Source: an uncultured bacterium (GTDB taxonomy: Bacteria > Omnitrophota > Omnitrophia > Omnitrophales > Abzuiibacteriaceae). From it: a DNA stretch of 64,000 nt. Positions 6,101 to 33,778 of this stretch are shown piece after piece. The stretch lies in the NCBI GenBank assembly GCA_964387845.1, contig CAYLXA010000011.1, positions 1-64,000 of the forward strand, written 5' to 3'. The notes beneath the pieces are model-generated. The model was not told the DNA's origin and did not search any database. It worked only from the letters and a program-made list of their open reading frames with translations. Made by a program: the position numbers and the translations under genes. Within the stretch, counting starts at the first letter, position 1. Each line of letters opens with the position of its first letter.

Positions 6101-9100
6101 ATGAAGCCGCAAAAGCATCTGAATCCGACCACGTTTTCGATATTTTAAAATCGTTTATGGATAGAGGCTGGAGCGTGGTCGCGACAGACCGGTATCGCGA
6201 AGAGCGTGATGCAGCTCACTTCAACGTTGCCCAGGGCGCCGAAATGAAATTAAAAAGCAAGGTGCTCAGGCAAGCCATCAAATTTTTGGCGTCAAACCGC
6301 CCGATCCGTATTCCTTCAAAAGACTGGTCGCGGGGCAAGCGGCATCAGCGCATGTCCGGCCTCTTGGTTCCTGTTCCGGACGAACCGATTGTCGTGCTTG
6401 TACACGGGCCGGAACTTTGGATGGTGAAAGACATCATGCCCGGCACTTTTTCGGGAATCGTATCGGTTGGTGATTATAAAGATGCTTCTAACGGTGTCTA
6501 TTTAGACAAACTCATTGACGCCATCGAAAAGAAAGCCAACGGCCGGATTGTTCAGCGTGAACCGTCACGTTCTGAGCTGCGGCATGGGCCTGAAGATTTT
6601 GTCAGAGACGAAACCGCGCGAATGGTTCGTGAGCTGGTCGGCACTTTCTACAAAAAATCTGTTTATCCTTTCGCGCACGAAATCGACAAAGGCAATATAC
6701 GCATTGAAGATCAAATTTTAGAGGAAGCGGCCCAGGCGGGGCTTTTCGGCCTCGCGATTCCGGAAGAGTTTGGCGGCTCGGGCCTCAGCCCTATTTTAAA
6801 AATCATTGCCGACATCATCGGCTGGTATATCAATCCTTCCGTTGCGCTTTCGATCGGTGTTCACAATAGCGTTGTCAAAGGGCCGATTCAAGATTACGGA
6901 ACGGAGGAGCAAAAAAAGAAATATCTCACGAAACTCGCGAGCGGTGAATTGATCGGCGGCTATGCGCTCACAGAATTGGAAGCCGGGTCCCAGGCATTGA
7001 GCAAGCGGTTTCCACTCCAGACGACCGCTGTCCCCGTGGAAGTCGACGGAAAACAATACTACAAACTAAACGGAACCAAACGGTTTATCACGAACGCCCG
7101 TTTTGCCGGTGTTTTTGTGGGTTTTGCGATGCTGGGTGACGAGCGAAGAGTATTTATCATTGATCGTGACTTGGAAGGTGTTTCGGTCGGAGAGGACGAG
7201 CAGAAAAGCGGTTTAAAAGGTTCTTCGACCGCGGATTTAATTTTGCAAGACGTTTTGGTTCCGGCTGAAAATCTGATCCCGGGAGACGGGATCAAAATCG
7301 GCATGTCTACCATGAGCCAGGGGCGCCTCAGCATCGCCGCAAGCGCTTTGGGCGGAAGCATGCGGATTTTTGATGATACGCTGGAATATTCGAAATTGCG
7401 CAAACAATTCGGCGGGCCAATTTGGCAATTCGGCGGCGTTAAGCAAACTCTGGCGGAAATGGCCGCGGATCTTTACGCGCAGGAGTCCGTTGTTTATGCG
7501 GTCGCATCTCTGCTGACCGAAGGCAAAGTGAATGCGGCATTTGAATCGGCGGTTGCCAAAGTTTTCGTGACGGAGAAATTTAACCACATTGCCCAGAAGG
7601 GCGTCAAAACACACGGCGGCGCCGGTTACATTTCGGATACGCCCACGGCGCGCATCGGCCAGGATGCGATTGTTACTGAAATTTTTGAAGGCATGAATGA
7701 TGTGCTTTATTCGAACGTGATTGCAGCCCTCTATCTTAAGAAATTGATGACGGAAGGCAATCAGGTGCTGAACATCTCGGATTACGGCCAGTTTTATCCG
7801 GAAATCCAAAAACTTTCGAGTTTAATCGGGCAAACCGGTAAAGTCATTCTCGGAAAATTCGGAACGCTCACGCCGGAGAATCAAGATGAGTACATGGCAT
7901 TCGGGAAAATGGCCTCCGAATTTTACGCAATTGTGTCCGCAGTGCGCAGGACCCGGAAAATAACATCAGAAATTAATCCGGATGACCCCAAACTGAAGCA
8001 TTTTTTGGATGTCACACGGCTGGTTGTAGCGAGAGGCACTAAACGGATCCGCGATGAGGCGTCTCATTTTGTAGATCCGGATGTGTTCGGCGTTTCTTCC
8101 GACCAGCGTAAGTATTTTGAATTAACCCGCGGCATTGCGGAACATCTCGTTGTCAATCCGCCGAAACGCATTGTTGAATTCAACGCCTCAAACGAAAGTC
8201 AGTCAAGCCGCGCCGAGCTTCGTCTCGATCCCGTTTATCTTGTCGATTTGACAGTGTTTGGCTTGCTTGCCATTTTACCGTCTTGGTTTGCGCTTAAACT
8301 GACAACCGAGCGCTATGCTAAGCGAACGATCGATCAGCTATATTCGCCGGCGGTTCAAGAAGAGATGGATGCGAATCGTTCTTTCAATGTCAATTTTTTA
8401 ACATTTTTTTATGACCGGGCAGTTCATTGGGTCCGGTTTCTTGTAATATCATTTTTGCACGGTTTTAGTGCATGGGTAGCCAGCTATTACGCTTTCGCCA
8501 TGTATTATCCGGCGGCTTCAATTTTTTGGCCTCTTGTTGCGGCTGCGGCTGCATTTGGCGCTTCCGGTGTTTCTTTATGGATTCGCGACAAAAAGCAGGT
8601 GCGGCAAAAAATAACTGTGGCTGCACAAATTCCGGCCAAGCAAATTCACGGAAAGTTTGAGCTGAATTTTGATTTGGTTTTTGGCTTTGATTTACGCGAA
8701 CTTTTAGACGGTAAAACAGGGGAAGAGCAAGCGCTTCAAAATTTACGGGCAAAAGTAGAAGAGCAGGTGGAGAGGATCGCCGCAAACAAGGGCGCCGTTC
8801 CCGCCGAGGTGGGAAAAGTTTTGGTTCCGGTGACGCCTGAAAGCTTTGCGAGCACAGGACCCAATTTCAAAGTGGAGGGCCTTCGCGGCCAGTTTACAGT
8901 TCGCATCCCTCGAAGCAATATCAATACTATGCACTCTTTTCCGCTCAATGTTACGTCCGTCTATTTGGGCGGCCAAAAAATCGCGGTCGGCACCGTGTTT
9001 TTCGAGAAAAATAAAGATGCGCGCTCAGAGTTGAGGTCCGAGGGTGCAGCAAAAAGTGCTTTTTCGAATTTCTTAGCGAGTGTGCCGGAAGATTCTGAAA

Positions 9101-12100
9101 AATGGAAGAGTTTTTTGCGCGAGCAGCTAGCGCTTTTTGCAGCCGAATGGGTTAAGCTGCCAGGGGAATTGCAAAATTTTTTCCCGGAAGAAACGCATTT
9201 ATTTCAGGAATTTACGGCTGATAATATTCCGGCGGTCAATTTAGACAATTTCTTTAAATTAGCTGCCGTGCGCGATGCCGTGGTTGATTTTATGCCGAAG
9301 CTTAACCAAAGCAGCTCTCTTCCGCAAAATGCCGAAGCCGTTCAGATCCCGGGTTTTAACGGTGCGCTTCTGGATGGCTGGGTGATTCGCGCGGCTGACA
9401 GCAAGCAAGAAAATCATCCGGCGTTTCTGATTTTGCCGCCATGGGGCGATGATATCTCAAAATACGGAAAGCTCGCCGAACTTCTTCATCAAGAGTTTCC
9501 ATCTTTTCATGTGATTGGTTTGGATTACACCAAAGATCCAAATCTCGAAACCATTTTGAATACCGGCGGAATCGCAGAAAGTTTTGATATTGAAGCGGTG
9601 ATTCGCGCGCTTTCCAGATTTTCCGATTTGAAGATTGATCCGTCCAAAATCACGGGCATCGGTTATTCGATGGGCGCTAATACTTTGGCGATCCTGCAAA
9701 AGCGCACCGGGCTTTTGTCTCATTTTGTGCCAATCGGGCTGCACGACAGTTACGCCTCCGTGCTTGCCGGCTATTATGAGAATGTCCATATTCCGCGCAT
9801 TGCAAGAATCGTTACACGCCGGGGCTATTCATTCATTGATTGGACTGACCCAATGATACGAGAGCATGCCAAGCGATTATTGATTGAAGCCAGGCTTCGA
9901 ATGAACCAATTTACTATCGCAAGAAGGGAAATTCCTGTTAAGCCGGAGGATGATCCGTTTTTAGATTTGGCAGAAACCGCATCATCGCTCCAAATTCCGG
10001 TTCATTTTGTATTTGAAGAGGAGTCTGATCTGTTACAGGAAAGCGTTCGTGATTTTTACCGCGCTCTGGCAGGGCAAATGAATGAATCAGGCCGAACGGC
10101 GCAATACAACACCTATCCCGGAAAGCACAACAAGATTGATCCGGCATCTTTGGTCAGCGATCTCAAAACTTTTCTGACCTCTCGTTCCGAATTGACTTCG
10201 GCTCGAGCGGAGCCGAAGACTATTTCGGCATCATCGCAGAGCGCGATGATGTCCGAATTGCGGAAGCAAAATCATTTTATTTTGTTTGTGGCTGGGAGCA
10301 TTTTGTTTTGGGCGGGCTGCTTAATGACGGAGCAAAAACCTGTCAGCGAAATGCCCGCGGAAACGCCAATTGAACAAATCGCCGAAACTTCCGAACCGGT
10401 TACAAACGCACCGGCCGATGATATAAGTGAGCCTGCCGAGATTCAGAAGCAGCCGCGCGCACCGCCCAAAAGTGAATTTGAGACTTTGCTTGAAGCTTTA
10501 GAAACAGGAAATGACGACGAGCGCTGGGATGCCGCCAAGACGCTCAGCCGTTCCGCCAACTCTGCCGCAAGCGGCACATTTTTAAAAGCGCTTCAGGATT
10601 CCAATAGTTTGGTCCGCCGCGAAGCCATTATTTTCTTCCGCTATCACCATGATCCGCGAGCACCGAAAGTTTTGATCGAGCTTTATCGCAAAGAACTCGA
10701 TTTGGGCATTCGATCCGACATTGTCGAAACATTGGGAATTTTGCAGAGCGCCGAAGCCGTTTCGTTTCTAATCCAACGGATCAAACGGGAAGACGGCGCC
10801 GCTTTCTATGTTTTAAAACGCGCGTTGGTCCGTATCGGCGTTCAAGCGATTGAGCCGCTTATCGATGCGATTCGCTTTGAATACAACAAAGAATTGGCCG
10901 CTAAATATGAAGAAACCCTTCGGGAAATCTTCAGAAATCCGGACGCTGCCGAACAGCGCAAAAAAGCGGAGAAACACTGGTACGAAGCCGTCCGCCGCGC
11001 CGCGCTCGGAATTACCAGCCGTTCAGAGCTTCGTAAATTTCACGAACCAAAACCGCAAGCAAGCGGCGTGGACGCGGGCATTTATATTGAAGGGTTAGAG
11101 AAAGTAATTCGGGCGAATCGGTTCAGCGCGCTTCGCTATGACCGAACGAAAAAGCGCTGGGTCATGACTTCCATTTTGATAGATGGAAAGAAGCGCAAGG
11201 GCCTTCTGCTGTCTAGGAAGCAACTCGATGGAGTTAATCTTGCTTTTAGTACGCTTCATCAAAAACTACAAAAGGAAATGACGGAAAAGTCGAATGCACG
11301 CATCATTTTTGTTAAAGGTTTGATGCCTATATTGGGAAACCACATGCCTTGGGTTCAGCGCCCGGCCGGCCTGAGCGGTTTTTCGAAGCCGGATTTTATT
11401 CTTGACCGCAATGCTGCTTACAATCCTCTGGCTTTGTTGGATCAATTTGAATATGAAATCCGGCGTAAGCGCTTGATGGCCGGTCAATTTTCTCCTGCGG
11501 AGAAAAGAGAATTAATCAGAAACCCAAACACTTTTGATTTGCGCGTTAAATTCAAGCAGGTTTATCTGGAAGCTCATGCTCAGTTGATTCAGGATAATGT
11601 TATAAATTCCAGAGATGAGCTTTCGTTCTACGATTCAACCCAGAGAACGCGCCTGCTTGAGCTTGTGATTTTGCAAGCTGCGCAGGAAGCGACCCAAGTT
11701 CGTTACCGGTCTGTCGAAAACGCTTTAAAAGCACTTGATGAGGCAGCCAAGGATGGAAATCATTCAGGACATCAAGTCGCAATTGGTATCTTGGCCTTGC
11801 ATGCATCTGACATTGCAGCCCGATTAATTAAAAAATCCGATAATGAGTCAATCAAGATCGCCGCACTGGACTATATTGCATCGGCGCTTATTGATCAAGA
11901 TACAGCTTCCCCAGCAATAGAGATTACTGGTGGCCTTCATCATGAAATCCGAAATATTCTAACCAATTCTAAAAACCCCCGGCTTAAAGCTGCCGCACTT
12001 CAACTTTTCACAGTCTTGATTTATGTTCAGCTAGTAGATTCGAACGAGAAGCTTAATGCGCTTGAATATCATTATGCCAATCTCGAACTGGTGATCAGAA

Positions 12101-15100
12101 GCCTGATTCCAACTATCCGTCAAATGGCGCTGACGGAGAAGAACGCGCTCTTAAGATCTCATGCCATTATTTTCTTTCTCGCTCTGTCTTTGCGGTATCC
12201 TCAGTTCAGAGGAAGCCGAAGGACGTTAAAACGCTTAGCGCCCGAATTGGAGCGGTATGTGCTCGAAGGGAAGGATTCCAACATGACTCAAACGGGTATT
12301 TTAGTTCTTGAGCATCTTTGGCGTCAGTTAGACAAAAATCCGGAGCGCTTCGAAACATTTATCAGCCGGTATATTTTCGGAGAAAACCATGCGCCGACCG
12401 GAATTCGGCGTACTGAAACTTATTGGGCGGGCAAATTAGCGCACTCCGAAATCTCGGAAAAGATGCCGACTCTGGACCGGATTCTGGCTAACAATGATCA
12501 GTTATCTCGTTTTCTCACTTTTCTTTCCGTTATGCGGCTTGCTTATCCTTATAGCATGATTAATGGTAGTTATGAGCGCCCGATTGCTTGGGCTAAGAAG
12601 AACCAAAAGATTTTTAAGCTCGACGAGCTCCGCATTGCGTTTGTCAGTGAATCATACCGCCGCCATATTATTTTTACGGAAGACCAAAGTCTTGCACTCG
12701 AAATAAAATTCCCAGGCGAACGCGCTTCAAGCGGCGATGTTTCGAAAATTCACGTGACATTGGCCGAAAAGTTGCGGCAGCAGCCTAAGGGTGAAACGGT
12801 GGTCAGCGAACCACTCTTTTTTATAGGTTTGAAAGGGTTATTCAATCTTTATGGCCCCCGGGAAACCTCGATTGAATATAAAGAATTTCCTTTGGGAATT
12901 GTGGGGTTCCGGTATCAAGACTCGAAACGTTTGCGTAATGTGCTTGAAGATAAAGAATTGTGGCAAGCATTTGTTGAGGAAGCTTATGGGCCATCGGACA
13001 AGTATCAACAAAAGGCCTATGTGCGGATTGCTGCGGATTTAATTATTTTTGCACTCAAGATTCATGAATTGGGTTATCAGGCCAGCACGCGCCGCCTAAC
13101 GGATCTTCACCTTGAAAATTTTGCGCTGTTGCCCGACGGCCACGTTTTTTCCGTGGCTGATTTCGGAATTTATTCCCGTAGCGGCAGCCGTTTAACCAAA
13201 TTCCGTAAAAGAAAAGAAACAAGCGGCCTGCTTGCTGCATTAACGGCTTACAAAAGCAGTCTCATTAGCGCTTGGGACAATCCGACATTTGTCATGGAGG
13301 TCGTTGACGCTGTTTTGGTTAAACTTTTAACAGGCGTTACCGATCCGGCAGAAAGAACAGAAATCATTCTGCGTGTCTTTGGGGAAGTGCGGGATATTTT
13401 TGAAAAAGTCGGCATTTCACCGCTATTCGAGGATGCGCTTGTGCGGGCTTGGGATGTTAATCAAGAGCCGGATGGATATGAAGTCCGTCAAAAAATTGCA
13501 AAATCCATCATTTCCAGATCGGTTATCGCTATTGGAATCGCATCCGATGCGTGGTCTGCGCTTCGATACGACAAAGATCAAGAAAGATTGATTACATCAC
13601 CGCTTCCGGACGATCTTGTGCATCGATTCTGGGATCATCCGGAATTGTTGCAACCGCTAGAACCGGTATTGCTAAGTGATAAAGAAGTTAATCTTCTCGA
13701 TAAAGCTTTCAAGCTTCTGCCTGAAGTGGATCGAAACCAGTTTACGTCGGATCCTAATTCTATGATCGTGTTAATGAAAGGAATGGATGCGCACATTGCA
13801 GAATCAACGATTGATTTCAAAAGATTGACGAACCCGCACGCCTATCACGACTTGGTGTCACCGCGTTTCTTTTTTGACCAGCGGCTGATCAAAGACCCGT
13901 TTGAATTCATGAAAATACTTCACAACGAGATCAAACTGCGGAATGCGATTCTTCAGAGTTTAACCGAAGATGAAATCGCGATGCTAAAAAACCGTCATTT
14001 GCCGGCTGAGCTTCAATCGAAAATCATGAAAAAAACACAGGAAACCAGAGATTTGCAGTGGGACACTTACTTTCGATCAGCCGGAAAGCAAGAACCCAAT
14101 CAAGAACAATTAAGTCTTTTGGAGGACCTTATTGTCTATGGTGCGCAGGATCATTTGCATAAAACATTCGAGTCTCCCGCAGAAGCTTTGTTGGCATTAG
14201 CAAAATCATTAGGAGAATTGAAAGGCGCTCAAAAGAAACGAACTCAAGATTTTCTATTTTACATTCACAACGAAATTTTATCTTTGATTCTGCTCAATCC
14301 AGATGCGGACTTAGATTTAAGAATATCGGCGGTTGTCTATGAGATAGAAAAGGCCAAGTTAGAATCGTTTGCGCTTTTGACTGCCGAGCCATTGGCACGG
14401 CATTTGGAGCGTATCTACGACCGGCATAAAAACGTCCGGCTGCGTGTTGTAATTCTTCGCTTCCTAGCAATTGTTCATGAGCAAGTTGAGCGGGAGATGA
14501 GAGATAATTTAAAGTCAGGGGACAATTTAGTTAAAACTCGTTACGTCGTCGAATCGATTGCCTGGAGGATGGCAGTCGGCGTTTTGAAAAACAATAAAAG
14601 CAAACGTGTCGAAAAGGAGATCGTTAAACTTTTGCTGCAGCTTTTACGGCCTTATGCCGCGGTCTCTCAAAAACCGAATCATGGGCAGTTACGTCTGCTT
14701 CTTGAGGAGGCTGTGATTTACATAAACCAGAATATCGAAAAAGATCCTTCAAAGGAAAAAAACAAGCTGCTTGCCCTGGCAATTTTAAGCAGGCAGATTC
14801 CGATTGCAAGCGACTATTTGGAAGCTGCGCTATTGCGGTATATTTTCGATTCAGATGACATTAAAGGAATACGGATGCGAAAGTCTGGCTATCCGGCGAG
14901 CGATGCTATTCAGCCTTTTGAACAAAGCATGCCCACGCTTATTCAAATATTGAAAAACAAGCAGTATTTAGCGCGTTTCATGGTTGCGCTCAGTATTTTG
15001 CGTGAAGCTTTTCCGTACCACGTCCCCAATTCGCATGATTTTAATGAAGACCTGCTTGAAACCGTAGAAACCAGTGGCGCCGTGCGGCTGAAAGAGCTCT

Positions 15101-18100
15101 TAATCGCGCCGCTTATGCATGAATATTCAAGCCACTTGGTTTCCACAGAGGACGGCCGCAATGTTTTGCGGCTGGTGATTCCGGGCGATTCTGTGCGGCA
15201 TTTTAGTAACCATCTTCGGAAAAATCATGTAGGCAAAAGAAATTTATTATTTTTTATTCCCATCCTCGGCGTCCCATTTTTGTATGGAGCTCTGGATTCC
15301 CATCGACTTTCGGGGTTTGCGGGTTACCGGGAACGCGCCAGTGAAGGTTTGACCATGAAAGAAATCAGAAGGCGTGAAATGATGAATGATCGGATTCCAT
15401 CGTTGGTCAGGACGATCTTGACGCACTTTGGCCAGAAGTATGATGCATCGGCGCTTCATGAAGCATTGGTTCGTCAGGATGTCAATCAGATCACAAAACT
15501 CATCTTCAGCGATGAATATTATCAAGATTTCAAGCAATGGCTGCTCAATTATATGCGGAACGTTTTTCATATGGAAGAAAGCGAAGTTCCGGATGCCTTC
15601 CGGCGTGCTTTAAAACAATACTTTGAGAAGAAAGAATCGCTAGGCCGCACAGAAGCAGCCGTAAAAAAATCAGCAGAAGGAAGCGACGCTCAATCAAAAT
15701 CCCGTTCAGAGCTCAGGGCAGGTGAGTTGTCCGCGGAAGTCCAATTGGCCAATGAGATCACCAAAGCCGTCACAAATTTTGCATTGTGGAAATCATCGGA
15801 ACACAAAATGTCGGTCTCTCGTCAGCAAATGCAAGGCTATAGAGATGCGCATCGGGAAGCGGATGCTTTGGTTAAGGCCGGAATCAAAACTTTGTTACTT
15901 TCCAGGGAAAGGGCAAAGCTCATTCAAGCTCGAACTGCAGTTCAACAGGCTATGAACCAGAGCGGCGTGACGGCAAAGGCAAAGAAAAGATACGAGTTTT
16001 ATATTGGGTTGCTCAATCAAGCCACCGAAAATCGTTCCGTCCCGACTCACAATAAAACGCCGGATCAGACTTCCGTTGAATATCCTCGCAATTCTTCAAT
16101 GAAAGCCAGAGCCGAGTTGCGTTCGAATCAAGCGTATCTTTGGAAATCGAAAATTACATTGGAATTGGCAAGCCCGGCCGGGAAGCCGGACGCTCCTAAA
16201 CGGTATATATTTGAAATAGAAGGCCGCAAATTCATGACGTTCGATGATCCTGATTCGGCCATTGAAATTGTGGGCGAAAGAGCGACCGATCTTGGTGTGC
16301 ACGATCCTTTTCTCAGTATTATGATCACCGAATTGCTGCCGTGGATTTTTGTTGAAAGCTTCAAAAATAGGAGGGTACGCCAACCAGACGGAAATTTTGC
16401 GCTTCAATTTCCGGAACTTGATTCCGGAGAAAAAGATATATTGGAAAGCGAAGTGCAGGTTGCTTTTGGTATTGGGAGTCAGCCGAGTTATGTTGCGTTT
16501 GGCCCCCGATGGTATCGCTTACCCGAGCGCGAATCGATTAATCAGATTGTCAATCAGGCCACCGATAGTTTTGCAGGTGATGATTCAATCGAAAAGCGTG
16601 CAGTGCCGGCTTTGGTGACTTTGGTCAAAGTTTTGAATGACGAAAGCCGAAGCGATGTTGAAACTTACATCGAACAGAAATTTGGTCCGCATGAATTCTT
16701 AAAACGTATGCTGACTTCCGAGAGAGTTACAAAAAACACTTTTTTTGATTTTGTCCGCCGTAATTTATTTTTGGAGCGGATCGGTGAAAAGTGGTTTCCC
16801 TACGGCCTATATACAGATACTAGGCGGTCTGAGCTAAGGCATGATTTTCGCTTTCTCCTAGGAATAGAGCGCGAAGAAGAAATGCAGAAAATCTTCGACA
16901 AGATTAAGCGGGGAGATTCCAACGACATCGAGCAAGCCTTAGGTTCCTTGATTGATTTTATCGGTACGATTCCCAATTTTTTAGATGACCGAAAGTGGGC
17001 GGAATTAAGGAAGTGGATTGCCCGGAATGTGGTTGGCAGCATCAATGTTTCATCTTTTAATACAGCCGGTATTCAAGATTTACTTATCCGTTTTTACAAT
17101 ATCCTGCCGGGCCCTACGACATTGGCTCTGTCTGCTTCGCTGGATGATGAAACCGAATTTGGTGAGCGCATATTTATATTAACTTTCTTATTAGCGGGTA
17201 TTCAAGAATCCGAAAACATAGCAAAGGTTGTATTGCGCAATCGTGTTTTTCAACGAGAAGCAAGCCGGCCAAAAACCGATAATGAAGCCCAGCTTTTTAA
17301 TCAAATTCACCAAGCAATCGATAGAAAAATTAAAGATCAGGCTTCGCCTAGCCCGGCTGCCGGGGAATTATCCGACCCACGATCTGAGCTTCGGATTGCG
17401 TTTACGGATGAGCTTCATCCGGAATTGTTAAGCAGGGAATTTGCAGACGAAAATTCGATCCGAAACAATTTAATAGAGGTTATGAGCGAGCCCAAGACTC
17501 GTGTGGAACTGTTGGGAATTAAAACAGGCGAGTTCATTCAGCGCACGATGGGCAAGATGCAGGTTGTTTTCGAGAAAACCGGCGAACGGGTCGATTCCCT
17601 GACGGGTGAACATGTTATAGAAATCGAATTTAATGTGATTGCGACAAAAGTTCATACCGAGTCCGGAACTATCGAAGCGCGAACGAAACCAAACAGCCGG
17701 TTGTTTGAAGGGCTAAATGCCGGTATCGTGCCGGAAATTAAAATTCGTTTTAACACGGCAATGACGAACGGGATTCGTGCGGTCAATGCGCGCCACGGGG
17801 AAATGGACGAAATTTTCGCTTCTCAAGTTCCGGATTTGGCGAGCGGTTTGGAACGTGTCGGACCCATTGCGGGCCATGATCTTATTTTCGGTGAGGATGG
17901 ATCGCCGCTTTTTGCGGAATATTTTCTTAAAAGATTCGGCGTTCTGGCCGTCGTTACGAGTTCACAAGCTGAAGAAGACTTTTTAGATCCGATCCGGGAT
18001 GACTTACAAAACGGGGAAGTGTTGATTGTCGCTCAAAGTTTTGAAGAAGCGCGCTTGGAACTTAGGAAAAGGGGATTTACGAATCAATTATTGCTTGTTT

Positions 18101-18249
18101 CCGAGTTTGATTTCGTTTCTGATTCGGTTAAGTCACGGGCCTATCAAATGAAAGTCTTCAGCAGGTCTGAAATGCGGCGGTTGCTTTCGGTTGTGGAAGA
18201 GGCAGCCATTCAAATCCGTTCGGAGCTCCGGACAGCCGTTTCGGCGTAA
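172..18249 (+). CDS. giant multi-domain membrane protein (6025 aa): N-terminal signal/TM, HEAT-like repeat arrays, acyl-CoA dehydrogenase-like domain, alpha/beta-hydrolase domain, APH/kinase-like motif, multiple TM clusters; recurrent SRSELR motif
   Basis: Single uninterrupted ORF from the six-frame track. Domain-level similarity in one frame throughout: ACAD motifs (PEEFGGSGLS, LNGTKRFITN, FEGMNDV), hydrolase GYSMG nucleophile elbow, HEAT-like AAAAYA repeats. The likely true start is ATG at 181, preceded by GGAAGGA; the TTG at 172 is the track start. A hydrophobic N-terminus (IIFLKVVAITLCFTFSVTSTIAYG) suggests a signal peptide or anchor. Stop is TAA at 18247-18249. Confidence 0.8.
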   Translation: MEGMSNYPPARIMRSQIIFLKVVAITLCFTFSVTSTIAYGDSSVIIESFKHNAWHVTPAFPGNKPAQLLDFARKADLVVASGRAELRAKELQATSLKLQSDPSALKVLKPEAEESRSELRNEEGELMKRPRARRDAREDAAEIEPAVETEAVVQAEDAEINYNHFAQRIINEPVGKLLIDKSMVEQIGKLNVPQFKQMFYMDVGALNAYFVLYTMIKENRELNPAIHDHILTEEAKEREKTAAADKAVQAKAQEQEVTARDTASKVKLVEKKRAKSQKKEAGIDTIERVQLAPVEATKLTQGLFRRTLSKYKQLWKQIRQNNLDKKDRALVMATNIMLLGGAAFSTMLWVSTDFGKYAAWFGYLSTVFLSEAGLPLFVNFVGTIDEMVLDVKAVNATERFIESLDRFEEFFRRMPLNPITEKGLIKGIRSLPAEIQLELKKISEGKDWDYRNLEKWYEIRRNQVIRILRKADLVIPGELENAPAWQEEENGGNPRVHRGKLLKLVSEAVNDSRNANRVEEYRKWAEKYKKARTLLRKIKGLNEEEMHLLAVQLTTTSFYGHPELEKRLVRAFSRIEKRQKNADQAVFLDREEGSSYTFSAQGLVDYVAARFRLSESDYDLEIDPVPPDFVNQVRIRSELRISFLQKLAIITTLLTAFFIPNTSKASTIPVGFMPPIDSAYLHSEGVREIRDDEKNVWQYQKYSNLDILTAAAVLNATRESPNASVDAGVIGVFRNERKPLEERILAATVLMLKQKDFKKEAGDFLVKILHDETKPGLDRTMAAAAYARLIDESSHKKTHKFAMDYLVRVLYDADKPYAERLYAASAYALFKAGRDYIDGPNYKTTIEYAMSILVSALHDEEAPVSHRLIAAAAYAGLDDMNFGDTHEYAIRYLKQVYQNPKSQFSNRVTAAAALLAADEYDSEDKFLALMLRLPSFDKKGNVVNERTPVDLLDAIQNGALTDAGAHAVKEKLKTILDEGRLNHDVGLLVRYAEVLENPTAVDFAEIVKLVSAVLPDEENRLEFWFDIAKKVQDPEKFNFNSYVLKNLLTDPVLDPAQVPDQEIMEFLIKNHPDQELRKQLKVRMKESQWQMVKGTQVVYLALVFMVGVGISIQQMKARRRSELRSILIELWNSVQTIARDPIYGPSYAICFGLMAYMVIKFGPRRGSFFPGSSRNIERMIRAKFKNASPSDLDQARTIVKELRDKIEKNLERPHFEIRYVLPAIIQSANSVEQLRKFVESLGVWKDAGWFDRLIGGVLPLSLVGRLGEAPLLVGNPYEKPAIEKAMKGIARAIQSSDEFREGFETVVIFFEKLKQATARKKYFRNESIISPQVAWEELLQKAHQIRMQHGDFTVSFQPEEREIINNRYTDKVLQHQVISVNEPSVASARSVPTHNKMPGTSIDGKVGTAQTSDENSSGSSMKVRAELRQASSRMRAKQERLFTERAASRRIARIDRWFQHYHDDYDMNWNPEFFASKHETFLDRIKTQLRDFEIENEAIDIAIEQSMSILIAGVPGGIIRAFLKRFTNMVHRHIYGPVAVEEINDRMRHFKERIDRSLESAASLDERRRLMKGYRLKHGYLWIDNVRTSFEELPVDHSTASTVKVIGPREMKIHQIAGYFENILHRKRGLLTDQKDHEILKFLVGRLTDSDPWVVKAAVWGINRIADRMDPVLKQFILERYYEILSGNHSEVARGSIARSIREVFNPQSLDVALEMLKTEQTEWVQTYLVEVIQTIVSQSDKKSLRYKHSRDIIEQLLEKAVGDPDAKRSHIMLRVGSIKALAELLWYDPEVLDRLKEMVLTEPDSTIQEAAMWALARLHVATPEGMAQIDSLLETLTAYLESSHAGRKNVFLEQYARQLLFWLQRLSSNRDLKAKILSMKRTNPDFSLTEKIILGALNQIEKYTKRLKLLEHANWIFELFQSAIFRRARSGSARTLTAYHDRLKAQAKRDAVYFSGRAMNPVILLDIDAILPKEGDEAAKASESDHVFDILKSFMDRGWSVVATDRYREERDAAHFNVAQGAEMKLKSKVLRQAIKFLASNRPIRIPSKDWSRGKRHQRMSGLLVPVPDEPIVVLVHGPELWMVKDIMPGTFSGIVSVGDYKDASNGVYLDKLIDAIEKKANGRIVQREPSRSELRHGPEDFVRDETARMVRELVGTFYKKSVYPFAHEIDKGNIRIEDQILEEAAQAGLFGLAIPEEFGGSGLSPILKIIADIIGWYINPSVALSIGVHNSVVKGPIQDYGTEEQKKKYLTKLASGELIGGYALTELEAGSQALSKRFPLQTTAVPVEVDGKQYYKLNGTKRFITNARFAGVFVGFAMLGDERRVFIIDRDLEGVSVGEDEQKSGLKGSSTADLILQDVLVPAENLIPGDGIKIGMSTMSQGRLSIAASALGGSMRIFDDTLEYSKLRKQFGGPIWQFGGVKQTLAEMAADLYAQESVVYAVASLLTEGKVNAAFESAVAKVFVTEKFNHIAQKGVKTHGGAGYISDTPTARIGQDAIVTEIFEGMNDVLYSNVIAALYLKKLMTEGNQVLNISDYGQFYPEIQKLSSLIGQTGKVILGKFGTLTPENQDEYMAFGKMASEFYAIVSAVRRTRKITSEINPDDPKLKHFLDVTRLVVARGTKRIRDEASHFVDPDVFGVSSDQRKYFELTRGIAEHLVVNPPKRIVEFNASNESQSSRAELRLDPVYLVDLTVFGLLAILPSWFALKLTTERYAKRTIDQLYSPAVQEEMDANRSFNVNFLTFFYDRAVHWVRFLVISFLHGFSAWVASYYAFAMYYPAASIFWPLVAAAAAFGASGVSLWIRDKKQVRQKITVAAQIPAKQIHGKFELNFDLVFGFDLRELLDGKTGEEQALQNLRAKVEEQVERIAANKGAVPAEVGKVLVPVTPESFASTGPNFKVEGLRGQFTVRIPRSNINTMHSFPLNVTSVYLGGQKIAVGTVFFEKNKDARSELRSEGAAKSAFSNFLASVPEDSEKWKSFLREQLALFAAEWVKLPGELQNFFPEETHLFQEFTADNIPAVNLDNFFKLAAVRDAVVDFMPKLNQSSSLPQNAEAVQIPGFNGALLDGWVIRAADSKQENHPAFLILPPWGDDISKYGKLAELLHQEFPSFHVIGLDYTKDPNLETILNTGGIAESFDIEAVIRALSRFSDLKIDPSKITGIGYSMGANTLAILQKRTGLLSHFVPIGLHDSYASVLAGYYENVHIPRIARIVTRRGYSFIDWTDPMIREHAKRLLIEARLRMNQFTIARREIPVKPEDDPFLDLAETASSLQIPVHFVFEEESDLLQESVRDFYRALAGQMNESGRTAQYNTYPGKHNKIDPASLVSDLKTFLTSRSELTSARAEPKTISASSQSAMMSELRKQNHFILFVAGSILFWAGCLMTEQKPVSEMPAETPIEQIAETSEPVTNAPADDISEPAEIQKQPRAPPKSEFETLLEALETGNDDERWDAAKTLSRSANSAASGTFLKALQDSNSLVRREAIIFFRYHHDPRAPKVLIELYRKELDLGIRSDIVETLGILQSAEAVSFLIQRIKREDGAAFYVLKRALVRIGVQAIEPLIDAIRFEYNKELAAKYEETLREIFRNPDAAEQRKKAEKHWYEAVRRAALGITSRSELRKFHEPKPQASGVDAGIYIEGLEKVIRANRFSALRYDRTKKRWVMTSILIDGKKRKGLLLSRKQLDGVNLAFSTLHQKLQKEMTEKSNARIIFVKGLMPILGNHMPWVQRPAGLSGFSKPDFILDRNAAYNPLALLDQFEYEIRRKRLMAGQFSPAEKRELIRNPNTFDLRVKFKQVYLEAHAQLIQDNVINSRDELSFYDSTQRTRLLELVILQAAQEATQVRYRSVENALKALDEAAKDGNHSGHQVAIGILALHASDIAARLIKKSDNESIKIAALDYIASALIDQDTASPAIEITGGLHHEIRNILTNSKNPRLKAAALQLFTVLIYVQLVDSNEKLNALEYHYANLELVIRSLIPTIRQMALTEKNALLRSHAIIFFLALSLRYPQFRGSRRTLKRLAPELERYVLEGKDSNMTQTGILVLEHLWRQLDKNPERFETFISRYIFGENHAPTGIRRTETYWAGKLAHSEISEKMPTLDRILANNDQLSRFLTFLSVMRLAYPYSMINGSYERPIAWAKKNQKIFKLDELRIAFVSESYRRHIIFTEDQSLALEIKFPGERASSGDVSKIHVTLAEKLRQQPKGETVVSEPLFFIGLKGLFNLYGPRETSIEYKEFPLGIVGFRYQDSKRLRNVLEDKELWQAFVEEAYGPSDKYQQKAYVRIAADLIIFALKIHELGYQASTRRLTDLHLENFALLPDGHVFSVADFGIYSRSGSRLTKFRKRKETSGLLAALTAYKSSLISAWDNPTFVMEVVDAVLVKLLTGVTDPAERTEIILRVFGEVRDIFEKVGISPLFEDALVRAWDVNQEPDGYEVRQKIAKSIISRSVIAIGIASDAWSALRYDKDQERLITSPLPDDLVHRFWDHPELLQPLEPVLLSDKEVNLLDKAFKLLPEVDRNQFTSDPNSMIVLMKGMDAHIAESTIDFKRLTNPHAYHDLVSPRFFFDQRLIKDPFEFMKILHNEIKLRNAILQSLTEDEIAMLKNRHLPAELQSKIMKKTQETRDLQWDTYFRSAGKQEPNQEQLSLLEDLIVYGAQDHLHKTFESPAEALLALAKSLGELKGAQKKRTQDFLFYIHNEILSLILLNPDADLDLRISAVVYEIEKAKLESFALLTAEPLARHLERIYDRHKNVRLRVVILRFLAIVHEQVEREMRDNLKSGDNLVKTRYVVESIAWRMAVGVLKNNKSKRVEKEIVKLLLQLLRPYAAVSQKPNHGQLRLLLEEAVIYINQNIEKDPSKEKNKLLALAILSRQIPIASDYLEAALLRYIFDSDDIKGIRMRKSGYPASDAIQPFEQSMPTLIQILKNKQYLARFMVALSILREAFPYHVPNSHDFNEDLLETVETSGAVRLKELLIAPLMHEYSSHLVSTEDGRNVLRLVIPGDSVRHFSNHLRKNHVGKRNLLFFIPILGVPFLYGALDSHRLSGFAGYRERASEGLTMKEIRRREMMNDRIPSLVRTILTHFGQKYDASALHEALVRQDVNQITKLIFSDEYYQDFKQWLLNYMRNVFHMEESEVPDAFRRALKQYFEKKESLGRTEAAVKKSAEGSDAQSKSRSELRAGELSAEVQLANEITKAVTNFALWKSSEHKMSVSRQQMQGYRDAHREADALVKAGIKTLLLSRERAKLIQARTAVQQAMNQSGVTAKAKKRYEFYIGLLNQATENRSVPTHNKTPDQTSVEYPRNSSMKARAELRSNQAYLWKSKITLELASPAGKPDAPKRYIFEIEGRKFMTFDDPDSAIEIVGERATDLGVHDPFLSIMITELLPWIFVESFKNRRVRQPDGNFALQFPELDSGEKDILESEVQVAFGIGSQPSYVAFGPRWYRLPERESINQIVNQATDSFAGDDSIEKRAVPALVTLVKVLNDESRSDVETYIEQKFGPHEFLKRMLTSERVTKNTFFDFVRRNLFLERIGEKWFPYGLYTDTRRSELRHDFRFLLGIEREEEMQKIFDKIKRGDSNDIEQALGSLIDFIGTIPNFLDDRKWAELRKWIARNVVGSINVSSFNTAGIQDLLIRFYNILPGPTTLALSASLDDETEFGERIFILTFLLAGIQESENIAKVVLRNRVFQREASRPKTDNEAQLFNQIHQAIDRKIKDQASPSPAAGELSDPRSELRIAFTDELHPELLSREFADENSIRNNLIEVMSEPKTRVELLGIKTGEFIQRTMGKMQVVFEKTGERVDSLTGEHVIEIEFNVIATKVHTESGTIEARTKPNSRLFEGLNAGIVPEIKIRFNTAMTNGIRAVNARHGEMDEIFASQVPDLASGLERVGPIAGHDLIFGEDGSPLFAEYFLKRFGVLAVVTSSQAEEDFLDPIRDDLQNGEVLIVAQSFEEARLELRKRGFTNQLLLVSEFDFVSDSVKSRAYQMKVFSRSEMRRLLSVVEEAAIQIRSELRTAVSA
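2395..2950 (+). other. tandem ~47-aa HEAT/ARM-like repeats (motif R..AAAAYA.L.D....YA..YL..VL.D...P, 4-5 copies) inside giant ORF
   Basis: Repeated protein motifs AAAAYARL / AASAYALF / AAAAYAGL / TAAAALLAAD at regular ~46-47 aa spacing in the translation. Confidence 0.5.
4336..4455 (+). repeat. intragenic direct repeat copy 1 (encodes SVPTHNKMP...SSMKVRAELR) in giant ORF
   Basis: About 90% nucleotide identity to 16034-16122 over ~90 nt (cgttccgtcccRactcacaataaaaYgccgg ... cagacttccgWtgaa ... ttcttcaatgaaagYcagRgccgaRttgcg). Copy 1 has a ~30-nt insertion. Confidence 0.75.
6655..7745 (+). other. acyl-CoA dehydrogenase (ACAD)-like domain embedded in giant ORF
   Basis: The translated segment KSVYPFAHEIDKG...FEGMNDV carries canonical ACAD N-, middle- and C-domain motifs: GLFGLAIPEEFGGSGL, GGYALTELEAGSQ, LNGTKRFITNA, GGAGYISD, FEGMNDV. 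It begins directly after SRSELR copy 4. Confidence 0.75.
9350..10140 (+). other. alpha/beta-hydrolase fold domain (serine hydrolase, GYSMG nucleophile elbow at 9661-9675) embedded in giant ORF
   Basis: HPAFLILPPWGDD...HVIGLDY...GIGYSMGANTLAIL... followed later by Asp/His candidates (HFVFEEESD..., PGKHNK). Typical order of an a/b hydrolase with a G-X-S-X-G motif. Confidence 0.6.
10500..10870 (+). other. PBS-lyase/HEAT-like repeat module in giant ORF
   Basis: ERWDAAKTLSRS...LVRREAIIFF...PKVLIELY...IRSDIVETLGIL...AVSFLIQRI resembles E-Z type HEAT repeats. Confidence 0.4.
12990..13180 (+). other. protein-kinase-like (APH/LPS-kinase/ELK superfamily) catalytic-loop + DFG motif in giant ORF
   Basis: ...ADLIIFALKIHELGYQASTRRLTDLHLENFALLPDGHVFSVADFGIY. 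DLHLEN (13102-13119) matches the HGDLHPGN/HRDLKPEN catalytic loop (D...N). ADFG (13156-13167) matches the DFG metal-binding motif at canonical spacing. Confidence 0.4.
16034..16122 (+). repeat. intragenic direct repeat copy 2 (encodes SVPTHNKTP...SSMKARAELR) in giant ORF
   Basis: See copy 1 at 4336-4455. Near-identical nucleotide stretch despite otherwise unrelated flanking sequence. Confidence 0.75.
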
Positions 18250-18917: not shown

Positions 18918-18976
18918 AAATTCAAAATTCAAATATCAAATCTCAAAATTTTGAATTTTTAATTTTGAAATTTGAG
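18918..18976. repeat. left arm of ~55-bp perfect inverted repeat flanking permease gene
   Basis: The reverse complement of 18918-18976 (…ttcaaaattcaaatatcaaatctcaaaattttgaatttttaattttgaaatttgag) matches 19905-19960 essentially perfectly. Confidence 0.8.
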
Positions 18977-18994
18977 TTTACGGTCATTAATTAC

Positions 18995-19897
18995 ATGAAC
19001 GGTATTAAAAGCAGGACCAAAGAAGCGATTGCGGCGTATTTGTTTCTTGCGCCCAACCTGATCGGCTTCCTGATCTTTACTTCCATTCCGGTCTTAGCAT
19101 CCCTCGTCCTCAGTTTTATGAAGTGGGACCTTTTTTCACCCCCTCAGTTTGTCGGTTTTGAAAATTTCAACGCGCTGTTTCACGATTCCTACTTTTGGCA
19201 ATATTGCTGGAACACGGTTTATTTGATGATGGCAATTCCGTTCAGCATTGCCGGCTCGCTGATTTTGGCGCTGGCGCTGAATCAAAAGTTGAAAGGCATG
19301 ACTTTCTTCCGGACTCTTTACTTTTTGCCGACGATTTGCTCCGGCGTTGCGATTTATATGCTGTGGCGGCTGGTTTATAACCCGGATTTCGGCATTTTCA
19401 ATATGCTGATCGCCAAATTCGGCGATTTGATCGGCGTGCCGCTTCAGGGGCCGTTTTGGCTGACGGATGAAGCATGGGCAAAGCCGGCGCTGATTATCAT
19501 GAGCGTGTGGCAGACGGTCGGCGGCTACAACATGATTTTGTATTTGGCGGCGCTGCAGGGCGTTCCGCGCGATTTATATGAAGCGGCAGAAATCGACGGT
19601 GCTAACAGCTGGCAAAAATTTTGGGCTGTGACGTGGCCGCAAATTTCGCCGACCACTTTTTTTATTGCCACGATGTCCGTGATCGGCGGCTTTCAGGCTG
19701 GATTCGATCCGGCCTACATCATGACGGGCGGCGGGCCGAACGGTTCAACCACGACCGTGATTTATTACATTTTCAACAACGCCTTCAAGTGGCATCAAAT
19801 GGGTTATGCGGCTGCCATTTCGTGGGTTTTGTTCCTGGTGATTTTTGTGGTGACGCTCGGTAAGTGGAAATTATTCAGTAAAACAGTGCACTATTAA
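18995..19897 (+). CDS. sugar ABC transporter permease (MalF/UgpA-type, binding-protein-dependent inner-membrane component)
   Basis: Track ORF 18965-19897. The likely start is ATG 18995 (MNGIKSRTKEAIAAYLFLAPNLIGF...). Contains the EAA-loop region (EAAEIDGANSWQKFWAVTWP) typical of MalF/UgpA. Confidence 0.85.
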   Translation: MNGIKSRTKEAIAAYLFLAPNLIGFLIFTSIPVLASLVLSFMKWDLFSPPQFVGFENFNALFHDSYFWQYCWNTVYLMMAIPFSIAGSLILALALNQKLKGMTFFRTLYFLPTICSGVAIYMLWRLVYNPDFGIFNMLIAKFGDLIGVPLQGPFWLTDEAWAKPALIIMSVWQTVGGYNMILYLAALQGVPRDLYEAAEIDGANSWQKFWAVTWPQISPTTFFIATMSVIGGFQAGFDPAYIMTGGGPNGSTTTVIYYIFNNAFKWHQMGYAAAISWVLFLVIFVVTLGKWKLFSKTVHY

Positions 19898-19900
19898 CGC

Positions 19901-19962
19901 AAATTCAAATTTCAAAATTAAAAATTCAAAATTTTGAGATTTGATATTTGAATTTTGAAATT
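19901..19962. repeat. right arm of ~55-bp perfect inverted repeat (intergenic between the two permease genes)
   Basis: Reverse complement of the 18918-18976 arm. Confidence 0.8.
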
Positions 19963-19967
19963 AAATT

Positions 19968-20849
19968 ATGAAATCAAAAGACTCCGCAAGGCATCAGCTG
20001 ACGGCTCGCAAAAAGAAGCCGCTGACGATTAAGGACCTCGGGATTTATATCGTGCTGATCATTGGCGCGATTACGATGGTGGCGCCTTTTCTGTGGATGA
20101 TCACGACATCGCTCAAAAATCCGGGCGATGTGTTTTCCTACAAGAAAATTTGGTGGCACGACTGGGTGCCGATGTCGTTTGTGTGGCGCAATTATATTGA
20201 AGCGTGGAATGTCGTGCCGTTTGCGCGCTTCTATTTAAATTCGATTTTGGTTGTTTTGCTGACCACATTCGGGCAGGTGGCGACGAGCGCGATGGCGGCT
20301 TATGCATTTGCGCGTCTCCAATTTCCCGGGCGCAATCAAATCTTTTTTTCCTATTTGGCAACCATGATGATCCCGGGTGCCGTCACGATGATCCCGGTTT
20401 TTATTTTGCTGCGTCAGCTCGGATGGATTGATACGTACAAGGCCATGATCTTGCCCGGCATTTTTACGGCGTACGGAACTTTCATGCTCCGGCAATTTTT
20501 CCTGACGCTGCCGAAAGACCTGGAAGATGCGGCGATGATTGACGGCTGTTCTTATTTTGGAATTTTCTGGCGGATTTTGCTCCCGCTTTCGCAGCCGGCA
20601 CTCGCAACGCTGACGATTTTTACGTTCATGGGCTCCTGGATGAATTTCATGTGGCCTTTGATCGTCATGAATTCCGAAGAAAAATTTCCGCTGCCGGTGG
20701 GCTTGGCGTATTTCCAAAGCTTGCACCATACGGATTGGACATTGTTGATGGCAGGTTCTGTGATGATGATTCTGCCGATTCTGCTTGTCTTCATGTTCGG
20801 CCAGCGCTATTTCGTGGAAGGTATTAAGCTGACGGGAATTAAAGGTTGA
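19968..20849 (+). CDS. sugar ABC transporter permease (MalG/UgpE-type)
   Basis: 293-aa ORF with 6 predicted TM segments and an EAA loop (EDAAMIDGCSYFGIFWRILLP). Confidence 0.85.
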   Translation: MKSKDSARHQLTARKKKPLTIKDLGIYIVLIIGAITMVAPFLWMITTSLKNPGDVFSYKKIWWHDWVPMSFVWRNYIEAWNVVPFARFYLNSILVVLLTTFGQVATSAMAAYAFARLQFPGRNQIFFSYLATMMIPGAVTMIPVFILLRQLGWIDTYKAMILPGIFTAYGTFMLRQFFLTLPKDLEDAAMIDGCSYFGIFWRILLPLSQPALATLTIFTFMGSWMNFMWPLIVMNSEEKFPLPVGLAYFQSLHHTDWTLLMAGSVMMILPILLVFMFGQRYFVEGIKLTGIKG

Positions 20850-20931
20850 TGAAGCGCCCCGTTGCGGCCCTGATTTTCATTGAAGCATCCAAGCGGTTAT
20901 TAATTGGAAATCAGGACCGTCGTGACTACCA

Positions 20932-22209
20932 ATGAATAAACGGCAGGGAAATAATAGGAAAGTCACGGCGGCTCTGATTTTAGCAGCGGGTAAGGGCGTC
21001 CGGATGAATTCGGATTTGCCCAAAGTACTTCATCCGGTTAGCTGTAAACCATTGCTAGGACATATTTTAGAAGCAGTTGAAGGAATCAGCGCAAGATCGA
21101 TCTTTGTAATTGTCGGGCACGGCGAAAAAGAAGTCCGCCAATATATCGGAAGCCGTGCGCAAGGAATCCGGCAAATGCCGCAGCTGGGGACGGGCCATGC
21201 GGTTTTATGCGCAAAGCCCAAACTCAAAAGCTGGAAAAACGATCTTTTGATTTTGCCGGGTGATGCACCCTTTGTGGAACCTGCGATGCTCCGCGAATTG
21301 GTTGCGCGGCATCAAAAGAGCGATGCCGGCGCCACGGTGCTGACGGCGCAAGTTTCGGACCCGAAAGGTTACGGTCGGATTTTGAAAGAGCACGGCAGTA
21401 TTTATGCGATCCGAGAAGAGCTCGACGCGTCGGAATCTGAACGCGCGATCACTGAAGTCAATACCGGCGTTTATGTGTTTGACACCGTGCGTCTTTTTGA
21501 ACACCTCGGGCGCCTGAAAGCAGACAATCAGAAAAAAGAATATTATTTAACGGATGTGATCGATTCGTTCGTCAGTTCCGGCATTGAAGTCCAGAGTTTT
21601 GAAATCAAATTATCGGGTGATGCGTTGGGCGTTAATTCGAGAATAGATTTGGCCAAAATGGAAAAAGCAATCAATCAAAGAGAAATTGAAAAACATCAGC
21701 GAAACGGCGTGACGGTCGTATCGCCCGAGAACACATGGATCGCATCGGGCGCTAAAATCGGAAAAGACACGACCATTTTTCCTTTTTGTTGGATTGAAGA
21801 CGGCGTTGTGATCGGCGAAAAATGTCAAATCGGCCCGGCGGCGACAATCCGGAAAAATACGAAAATCGAAAGCGGCGTTGTGATCGGCAATTTTGTGGAA
21901 GTGACACGTTCGAAAATCGGCAAAAAAACACGGATCAAACATTTGTCCTACATCGGCGATGCGCAGATCGGTAATGACGTCAATATCGGCGCAGGGACGA
22001 TTACGGCGAATTTTGACGGGAAAAATAAGAATAAAACCGTTATCCAGAACGGCGCTTCGGTCGGCTCCGGGACCACGCTGGTAGCGCCGGTGAAGCTTGC
22101 GAAGAAATCAAAAACAGGCGCGGGATCTGTTTTGTTAAAAGGAACTTCCGTGAAATCCGGTGAAACATTCGTCGGAATTCCGGCTCGAAAAGTGACACGA
22201 AAAAAATAA
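20932..22209 (+). CDS. glmU: bifunctional UDP-N-acetylglucosamine pyrophosphorylase / glucosamine-1-phosphate N-acetyltransferase
   Basis: N-terminal LILAAGKGVRM nucleotidyltransferase motif; C-terminal left-handed beta-helix hexapeptide repeats (IGxxVxIG...). Confidence 0.9.
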   Translation: MNKRQGNNRKVTAALILAAGKGVRMNSDLPKVLHPVSCKPLLGHILEAVEGISARSIFVIVGHGEKEVRQYIGSRAQGIRQMPQLGTGHAVLCAKPKLKSWKNDLLILPGDAPFVEPAMLRELVARHQKSDAGATVLTAQVSDPKGYGRILKEHGSIYAIREELDASESERAITEVNTGVYVFDTVRLFEHLGRLKADNQKKEYYLTDVIDSFVSSGIEVQSFEIKLSGDALGVNSRIDLAKMEKAINQREIEKHQRNGVTVVSPENTWIASGAKIGKDTTIFPFCWIEDGVVIGEKCQIGPAATIRKNTKIESGVVIGNFVEVTRSKIGKKTRIKHLSYIGDAQIGNDVNIGAGTITANFDGKNKNKTVIQNGASVGSGTTLVAPVKLAKKSKTGAGSVLLKGTSVKSGETFVGIPARKVTRKK

Positions 22210-22228
22210 TCAAAGAAAGAACTTATCC

Positions 22229-23185: not shown

Positions 23186-23223
23186 TAAGGGTTTACATTG
23201 AATTTAAAGGAGAAACGCAGGTC

Positions 23224-23946: not shown

Positions 23947-23951
23947 TTTGA

Positions 23952-24993: not shown

Positions 24994-25016
24994 AATCAGG
25001 GATAGGAAGGTGAATC

Positions 25017-33772: not shown

Positions 33773-33778
33773 AAGAAG

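Follow-up and report, generated by a model that had tools for sequence, protein, structure and literature searches.

Kinases of the RIO1/RIO2, Bud32 (KEOPS) and WaaP/Kdo families have in common a bilobal fold of ~220-260 amino acids (aa), a catalytic Asp and Asn, a metal-binding Asp, and a short region after the residue equivalent to the Asp of DFG. Their phosphate-binding loop is STGKEA in RIO and glycine-rich in Bud32 and WaaP. The catalytic loop and DFG read DRHxxN…DFG in PI3K/PI4K and D-P-H-P-G-N…DFG in ABC1, and Ser/Thr kinases carry a Lys two residues after the catalytic Asp (D+2). Kinase-fold families that escape detection by sequence profiles, such as SelO, SidJ, Fam20, CotH and HopBF1, have repeatedly proved to have unexpected chemistry or to be secreted effectors. 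Here we describe a domain encoded in a giant open reading frame (ORF) of an uncultured member of the Omnitrophota (family Abzuiibacteriaceae), within a stretch of 64,000 nucleotides (nt), hereafter the window, comprising positions 1 to 64,000 of contig CAYLXA010000011.1. This part of the giant protein, aa ~4094-4357, has a protein-kinase-like (PKL) fold, very divergent in sequence and minimal in architecture, and its activity is most likely that of a Mg-ATP phosphotransferase.

The domain contains a segment that an earlier note on this DNA had likened to the catalytic-loop-to-DFG portion of a kinase-like domain, with the catalytic Asp and Asn retained. This segment, IAADLIIFALKIHELGYQASTRRLTDLHLENFALLPDGHVFSVADFGIY, is encoded on the forward strand at nt 13027-13173 (aa 4286-4334), inside the interval 12990-13180 given at that time. 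The DLHLEN…ADFG span covers aa 4311-4332 (nt 13102-13167), with the codons of Asp4311 and Asn4316 at nt 13102-13104 and 13117-13119, respectively. The pattern D.H..N.{10,16}DFG occurs once in the giant protein against 2.5e-4 occurrences expected in a protein of the same length and composition, and the motif is therefore not a product of chance. An exhaustive phmmer search of 1.84 billion cluster representatives returned 102 homologues at E ≤ 1e-3, of which 70 fell at E ≤ 1e-10 and 21 at E ≤ 1e-30; the top match, P0001 (6013 aa, from a public collection), is the same giant protein begun at the ATG at nt 208, the probable start of the ORF. The matches span query residues ~5-265 (aa ~4094-4355) throughout, with DFG near the C-terminal end, and this consistent span defines a domain of ~260 aa. 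A word-indexed search of 5.8 billion proteins yielded no match with the single sequence as query and one protein only with an alignment as query.

Conservation was counted in a MAFFT alignment of 94 domain copies, to which all the following counts refer. The pattern [DE]xHxxN followed by a downstream Asp is kept in 85 of the 94 domains, in agreement with the claim that Asp4311 and Asn4316 are retained catalytic residues. Within D4311-x-H4313-x-E-N4316, the Asp is kept in 84 domains (with Glu in a further 8), the His in 87, the Glu in 65 and the Asn in 93; the residues of D4330-F-G are kept in 92, 77 and 62, and the modal spacing from the Asn to the DFG Asp is 13 residues. Further conserved positions are R4122 (91/94), S4161-F-R4163-R4164-H (90, 89, 92, 93 and 75), E4177-x-K4179-x-P-G (E 87, K 79, P 93, G 92), G4222 (85), Y4227 (89), Y4248-x-D-G-K-R4253 (Y 82, D 80, G 84, K 66, R 93), and H4298 and G4301 of an H-x-x-G motif (80 and 87). 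The combination of K-x-P-G, D-x-H-x-x-N and a later Asp is found in 66 domains. Judged by this alignment, the protein family is a real one and the flagged motif its most conserved feature.

The predicted structure of the domain is a kinase fold, as the earlier note had anticipated. AlphaFold2 run on the single sequence returned an unusable model, with a predicted local distance difference test (pLDDT) score of 43; supplied with an alignment of 39 homologues, it returned a model with pLDDT 94 and a predicted template-modelling score (pTM) of 0.91. The model begins with helices at residues 2-54, followed by strands at 58-61, 64-67, 75-80 and 86-90 and a helix at 104-113. Next come hairpin strands at 125-136 and 144-158 and helices at 165-210, and the model ends with short strands at 228-230 and 236-238, which flank the catalytic loop and DFG, and a helix at 254-267. 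As modelled, the order of these elements is that of a kinase: β1-β3, αC, β4-β5, hinge, αD/αE, catalytic loop, β7-β8 and DFG. Foldseek searches of the PDB retrieved protein kinases together with PI3Kγ/Vps34 (E 2e-5 to 3e-4, template-modelling (TM) scores of 0.34-0.45), and in BFVD the named matches were mostly kinases, the top two being nidovirus replicase polyproteins. These moderate scores are consistent with a distant branch of the kinase-like superfamily.

Residue correspondence in the C-lobe was obtained by hhalign of the 39-sequence alignment against PKA and PknB (P ~5e-4, probability ~30%), which served as a mapping aid only. D4311 aligned with PKA D166 and PknB D138, N4316 with PKA N171 and PknB N143, and D4330 with PKA D184 and PknB D156, while F-x-Y-x-D-G-K-R-L fell on the hinge (MEYV in PKA, MEYVDG in PknB) and H-x-L-G on the end of αE. 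The domain displays the fold-level features of the PKL superfamily, namely a bilobal model, a catalytic Asp and Asn (D4311 and N4316), and a downstream metal-binding Asp (D4330), the last of which is presumed to bind Mg2+.

The families to which the earlier note had looked for relatives, Pkinase, APH, Kdo and RIO, proved not to include this domain. Pfam searches of 200-aa and 333-aa sub-regions returned no kinase family even at E ≤ 10, and Pkinase (PF00069) was not matched by any of 39 family members at E ≤ 1. Profiles for APH and choline-kinase-like proteins (PF01636), RIO (PF01163), Kdo/WaaP (PF06293) and PI3K/PI4K (PF00454) likewise matched neither the window domain nor the 39 members. Searches of PDB sequences by phmmer and profile hmmsearch found no kinase, and NCBIfam returned nothing meaningful on the 39 members. 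Of the Pkinase hallmarks, GxGxxG, HRD and a conserved αC Glu are all lacking in the family; the Brenner motif H-x-D-x-x-x-x-N is absent as well, the residue two before the catalytic Asp being Leu in the window copy and mostly Gly in the family (41/94). Weak matches to ABC1 (PF03109), with E values of 0.03-0.09, fell on the catalytic loop in three of the 39 members (best E 0.032) and in one standalone homologue, whose match spans profile positions 186-225 and scores 12.3 bits, the cut-off being 22.9 bits. One member matched TIGR01982 (ABC1/UbiB) below significance, at E 0.13. Because no curated profile reaches its threshold, the domain is filed as an uncurated new family of the PKL superfamily, separate from APH, Kdo, RIO and Pkinase. 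Retrieved passages of the literature on kinase-like or giant proteins of Omnitrophota and Elusimicrobia do not describe it.

At the position of the glycine-rich loop between β1 and β2, the family consensus reads P-V-S-E-S-F-R-R-H, and the two residues before the catalytic Asp, G-T in the consensus, are L-T in the window copy. Lys4179 stands at the end of the β3-position strand in the model and is presumed to bind the ATP phosphates, in a register uncertain by ±2 residues. A comparison restricted to the N-lobe placed S-E-S-F-R-R on the G-T-G-S-F-G-R of PKA, but was non-significant (P=0.06) and shifted by two residues at the β3 Lys, so that the assignment of Lys4179 is drawn solely from topology and conservation. 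The earlier note had also proposed GLKGLFNLYG as a glycine-rich stretch upstream. It does lie upstream, by 58 aa from where the quoted segment begins and by 83-92 aa from the catalytic Asp, but its role as a nucleotide-binding loop was ruled out by topology and by hhalign, which places it on β4 of PknB (VAVYDTG).

Homologues were located by a taxon scan of one genome per GTDB species, with eight of the closer homologue sequences as query. The 21 loci found lie in metagenome-assembled genomes (MAGs) or single-cell genomes, all of Elusimicrobiota or Omnitrophota except for one MAG labelled 'Planctomycetales' and one labelled 'uncultured bacterium'; NCBI names two homologues, both of Elusimicrobiota, 'hypothetical protein' and 'AAA family ATPase, partial'. 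The homologues are of two types. Some are complete proteins of ~920-1090 aa that have a Sec-type signal peptide and carry the domain close to the C-terminus; the others are giant ORFs of up to 6939 aa. The N-terminal ~600-750 aa of the standalone proteins have no Pfam match. By a crude hydrophobicity test, 46 of 90 Met-starting homologues have an N-terminal signal or anchor, many of the others being fragments, and the homologues are predicted to be mostly signal-peptide-bearing or membrane-anchored. The neighbourhoods of the standalone homologues (AnmK, UbiA, COX2, pyridoxal phosphate enzymes, tetratricopeptide repeat proteins) are of a housekeeping kind, vary from locus to locus and offer no hint of function.

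Compared with RIO, Bud32 and WaaP, the domain has the same compact bilobal form and short region after DFG, and its N-terminal helical extension is also found in RIO. It differs from them in its S-E-S-F-R-R-H loop and in lacking a His two residues before the catalytic Asp. A further difference is that the members of its family are exported or anchored in the membrane and form part of giant proteins. With PknB and PKA it shares the hinge, the catalytic Asp and Asn, DFG, and a similar spacing from N to D (13 residues against 12 in PKA), but the family has G-T-D for HRD and His for Lys at D+2, and no APE motif or activation segment of the Pkinase type is recognisable in this domain. The succession of D-x-H-x-x-N and D-F-G is common to PI3K/PI4K, ABC1 and this domain, as is a helical region directly before the kinase domain in PI3K and ABC1; PI3K-type structures (1e8w, 3ihy and 2x6h) were matched by Foldseek at E 4e-5 to 3e-4 with TM scores of 0.34-0.42. 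This domain is, however, much smaller, and neither the KxGQ of ABC1 nor the activation loop of PI3K is seen in it.

In order, the domain consists of N-terminal helices, a five-stranded N-lobe with an S-E-S-[FY]-R-R-H loop instead of GxGxxG and the β3-position Lys4179 in A-x-E-x-K-x-P-G, an αC-like helix, a long β4-β5 hairpin, the hinge F-x-Y-x-D-G-K-R, D4311-x-H-x-x-N4316, D4330-F-G, and one conserved helix. In a Mg-ATP-dependent phosphoryl transfer, Asp4311 would be the catalytic base, the metal ions would be bound by Asn4316 and Asp4330, and the phosphates by Lys4179 and the two invariant arginines of the loop. The enzyme probably works outside the cytoplasm of its producer, or once it has been released or delivered, with a protein, or an anionic constituent of the envelope or of lipid, as its target. 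Several observations weigh against such an enzyme. No Pfam, NCBIfam or PDB sequence profile is significant; there is no GxGxxG loop, its position reading SESYRRH in the window copy; no αC Glu or other acidic residue is conserved there among the 94 domains; and the window copy departs from the family consensus at P4157F, G4251S, G4304A and R4318A. The model ends 25 residues past DFG and so does not establish a substrate-binding C-lobe, the hhalign mapping used sequences of PKA and PknB that were entered by hand, and export would be an awkward setting for an enzyme that depends on ATP.

Some of these points would suit a kinase-like fold without catalysis, in which this copy or the whole family is a pseudokinase acting as a scaffold or nucleotide-binding module of the giant protein: the lack of both GxGxxG and a conserved αC Glu, the window copy's four deviations at otherwise conserved positions, the predicted export to an ATP-scarce location, and an adjacent paralogous module that has already decayed and has no catalytic loop. 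We consider this unlikely, as the window copy retains the catalytic Asp and Asn together with the DFG Asp and the β3 Lys, and these residues are near-invariant in the 94 domains, a pattern that characterises active enzymes rather than pseudokinases. A possibility to be taken more seriously, if still a doubtful one, is an active kinase-fold enzyme that is not a protein Ser/Thr/Tyr kinase but a lipid, sugar or small-molecule kinase (PI3K/PI4K-, UbiB/ABC1-, WaaP- or APH-like), or one that carries out AMPylation (SelO-like) or glutamylation (SidJ-like). PI3K/PI4K, ABC1 and many APH-like enzymes likewise have His at D+2, the top Foldseek matches include PI3Kγ and Vps34, and the sole weak sequence matches are to ABC1/UbiB. 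Four invariant arginines (R4122, R4163, R4164 and R4253) point to an anionic substrate or to a nucleotide bound in an unusual pose, and these, together with the arginine-rich loop at the usual glycine position, make a non-protein substrate or non-canonical chemistry a serious alternative. Against it, the TM scores to PI3K are low, the ABC1 matches lie far under the curated cut-off, and no result obtained here separates the substrate classes. That the motif is coincidental and the protein not a kinase at all would fit the lack of a curated kinase profile match, but can practically be dismissed given the chance expectation, the retention of the motif across homologues and the confident kinase-fold model; the conservation alignment and the AlphaFold2 model already refute it. 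The divergent PKL-fold phosphotransferase continues to be the reading that we prefer.

The recurrent R-x-S motif to which the earlier note had pointed as a possible substrate does recur in the giant ORF, in ~16 copies, although its form is rather R-[SA]-E-L-R. Ser is found in 12 copies and Ala in 4, and the Ser, Leu and Arg codons vary, indicating conservation at the protein level; the pattern R[SPA]E[LVSAIMT]R is observed 15 times in the giant protein against 0.28 expected. The motif lies at domain boundaries: copies bracket an acyl-CoA dehydrogenase exactly, as well as hydrolase-like, HEAT and kinase segments. The over-representation of the motif and the Ser in 12 copies would accord with phosphorylation by the kinase of its own giant protein, but this is very improbable. 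The four RAELR copies indicate that Ser is not required, three or more motifs are present in only 7 of 40 homologous proteins of at least 1500 aa, and the complete standalone homologues of ~1000 aa that were checked carry none or one. The boundary position, often followed by a stretch resembling a signal peptide or lipobox, fits a linker or processing site, and this sequence evidence suggests that R-[SA]-E-L-R is an inter-domain linker or a processing site of a polyprotein-like precursor rather than a kinase substrate.

Stretches resembling N-termini directly follow motifs at window positions 2092-2150, 8224-8300 and 10249-10330, reading RSELR-ISFLQKLAIITTLLTAFFIPNTSKAS, RAELR-LDPVYLVDLTVFGLLAILPSWFALKL and the lipobox-like M-M-SELRKQNHFILFVAGSILFWAGC; it looks as if several exported proteins, once separate, had become joined. 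Further giant proteins that carry this domain (P0003, P0046, P0055, P0065, P0073 and P0096) have their own variants, RSESR/RSEAR, RSEVR/RSEMR, RPEAR and RSELR, in 3-6 copies against ~0.1 expected, so that the motif marks some, but not all, of these proteins in different genomes. A 932-aa open frame in locus L018 has seven copies. A literature search for RSELR returned software names only. Two linkers, at window positions 4336-4454 and 16033-16121, are alike in DNA (31 nt at 94%, 61 nt at 79%) and both encode RSVPTHNK[MT]P…SSMK[VA]RAELR; the former has an extra ~30 nt that make a 10-bp inverted repeat, CCGTCCCAAC…GTTGGGACGG. From its sequence the pair looks as though a linker cassette had been duplicated recently. 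The giant protein ends in …RSELRTAVSA (window 18217-18249). Small-residue tails, …[SAQK]A-COOH, end P0003, P0008, P0015, P0036, P0046, P0049, P0084, P0096, P0097, P0099 and others, examples in homologous giants being …VQSA, …IKQAA, …LLASA, …ASIAA, …RSAA and …FASAA; such a common C-terminal tail may be a sorting, secretion or degradation signal.

In architecture, the giant protein resembles the Archaeovorins, giant multi-domain proteins of Omnitrophota (10.1101/2023.11.21.568195). Shared features are a membrane anchor at the N-terminus, HEAT repeats, metabolic-enzyme domains embedded in the chain, and occurrence in the same phyla. The likeness described here is one of architecture, and this protein has 6025 aa against at least 30,000 in Archaeovorins (10.1101/2023.11.21.568195). 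Post-translational cleavage of Archaeovorins into several products is suspected, at points unknown to those authors, and the retrieved passages of that paper on kinases concern only pyruvate-phosphate dikinase and histidine-kinase-like ATPase domains (10.1101/2023.11.21.568195). A bolder picture, which we hold to be quite unlikely, is that of a new class of exported kinase-fold enzymes of Elusimicrobiota and Omnitrophota, in which the arginine-rich S-E-S-F-R-R-H loop would hold the nucleotide in an unusual pose for non-canonical chemistry (e.g., AMPylation or another nucleotidyl or phosphoryl transfer) on envelope components or on host or prey proteins, the enzyme being released from a giant precursor cut at R-[SA]-E-x-R sites, a bacterial polyprotein.

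The family is well defined by ~100 sequences, sharp motifs and a confident model, and neither Pfam nor NCBIfam contains it. The exported and giant proteins with which it is associated belong to two uncultivated phyla, whose giants are suspected of a role in predation or symbiosis, and it places one recognisable enzyme in otherwise almost unannotated proteins. A domain of ~260 aa is a concrete, expressible target for biochemistry, and its significance would be greater if the family turned out to act as an exported effector or to catalyse an unusual reaction. The coordinates of the domain, its elements and associated features are collected in Table 1.

Table 1. Features of the giant ORF, the kinase-fold domain and its standalone homologues (positions are those of the window unless a locus is named)
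Feature	Position (nt)	Strand	Basis
Giant ORF, 6025 codons/aa	172..18249	+	reading frame
Segment between two RSELR motifs, aa 3622-5182; two tandem paralogous modules	11035..15717	+	BLASTP E=3e-22, 24% identity over 617 aa
Kinase-fold domain, aa ~4094-4357	12451..13242	+	unit conserved in 102 homologues; model pLDDT 94
N-terminal helical extension (model helices 2-54), with near-invariant Arg4122	12451..12606	+	alignment, model
V-S-E-S-Y-R-R-H, aa 4158-4165, β1-β2 loop at glycine-rich-loop position	12643..12666	+	alignment, model
A-L-E-I-K-F-P-G, strand at β3 position	12694..12717	+	alignment, model
GLKGLFNLYG, aa 4219-4228, strand β4 after αC-like helix	12826..12855	+	model, hhalign
F-R-Y-Q-D-S-K-R-L (consensus F-x-Y-x-D-G-K-R-L), β5 end and hinge	12907..12933	+	alignment, hhalign
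Catalytic loop D-L-H-L-E-N (GAT CTT CAC CTT GAA AAT)	13102..13119	+	DNA reading, alignment, hhalign
D-F-G (GAT TTC GGA)	13159..13167	+	DNA reading, alignment, hhalign
Module 2, tandem paralogue	13492-15702	+	BLASTP, family profile
Degenerate second domain copy in module 2, aa 4916-5008 matched	14917..15291	+	family profile E=6e-14
R-[SA]-E-L-R starts (span 418-18231)	418, 517, 2077, 3529, 4441, 6568, 8209, 9022, 10183, 10249, 11020, 15703, 16108, 16825, 17380, 18217	+	
Three-domain acyl-CoA dehydrogenase, complete, between two motif copies	6583-8223	+	Pfam E 1e-32, 9e-27, 4e-15
Standalone complete homologues	L005:2165-4921, L008:1832-4933, L010:1670-4936, L012:1856-4900, L014:1754-4900		

The intact kinase-fold domain belongs to module 1 of the two tandem modules. 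In module 2 the family profile matches the N-terminal helices and β1-β3 only; SESFRRH is replaced by MHEYSSH and E-x-K by R-L-V, and neither a catalytic loop nor DFG is found, so that by its sequence this second copy of the domain has decayed. In module 1, the N-terminal ~470 aa show detectable conservation in one other giant protein only, which indicates that the kinase domain is a mobile conserved unit. When the whole giant protein was searched against Pfam in ten pieces, HEAT repeats, the complete acyl-CoA dehydrogenase and a faint α/β-hydrolase signal were found, with no match within nt 11035-15717.

Rfam searches of the whole window found four tRNAs only, at 46788-47035 and 52470-52680, none of them in the giant ORF. 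Downstream of the giant ORF, window positions 18965-37183 encode UgpA/UgpE-like permeases, GlmU, Prs, bL25, DnaB, BamA, a fused LpxC-FabZ and a NifA-type sigma-54 activator, which is an ordinary chromosomal neighbourhood of a diderm bacterium.

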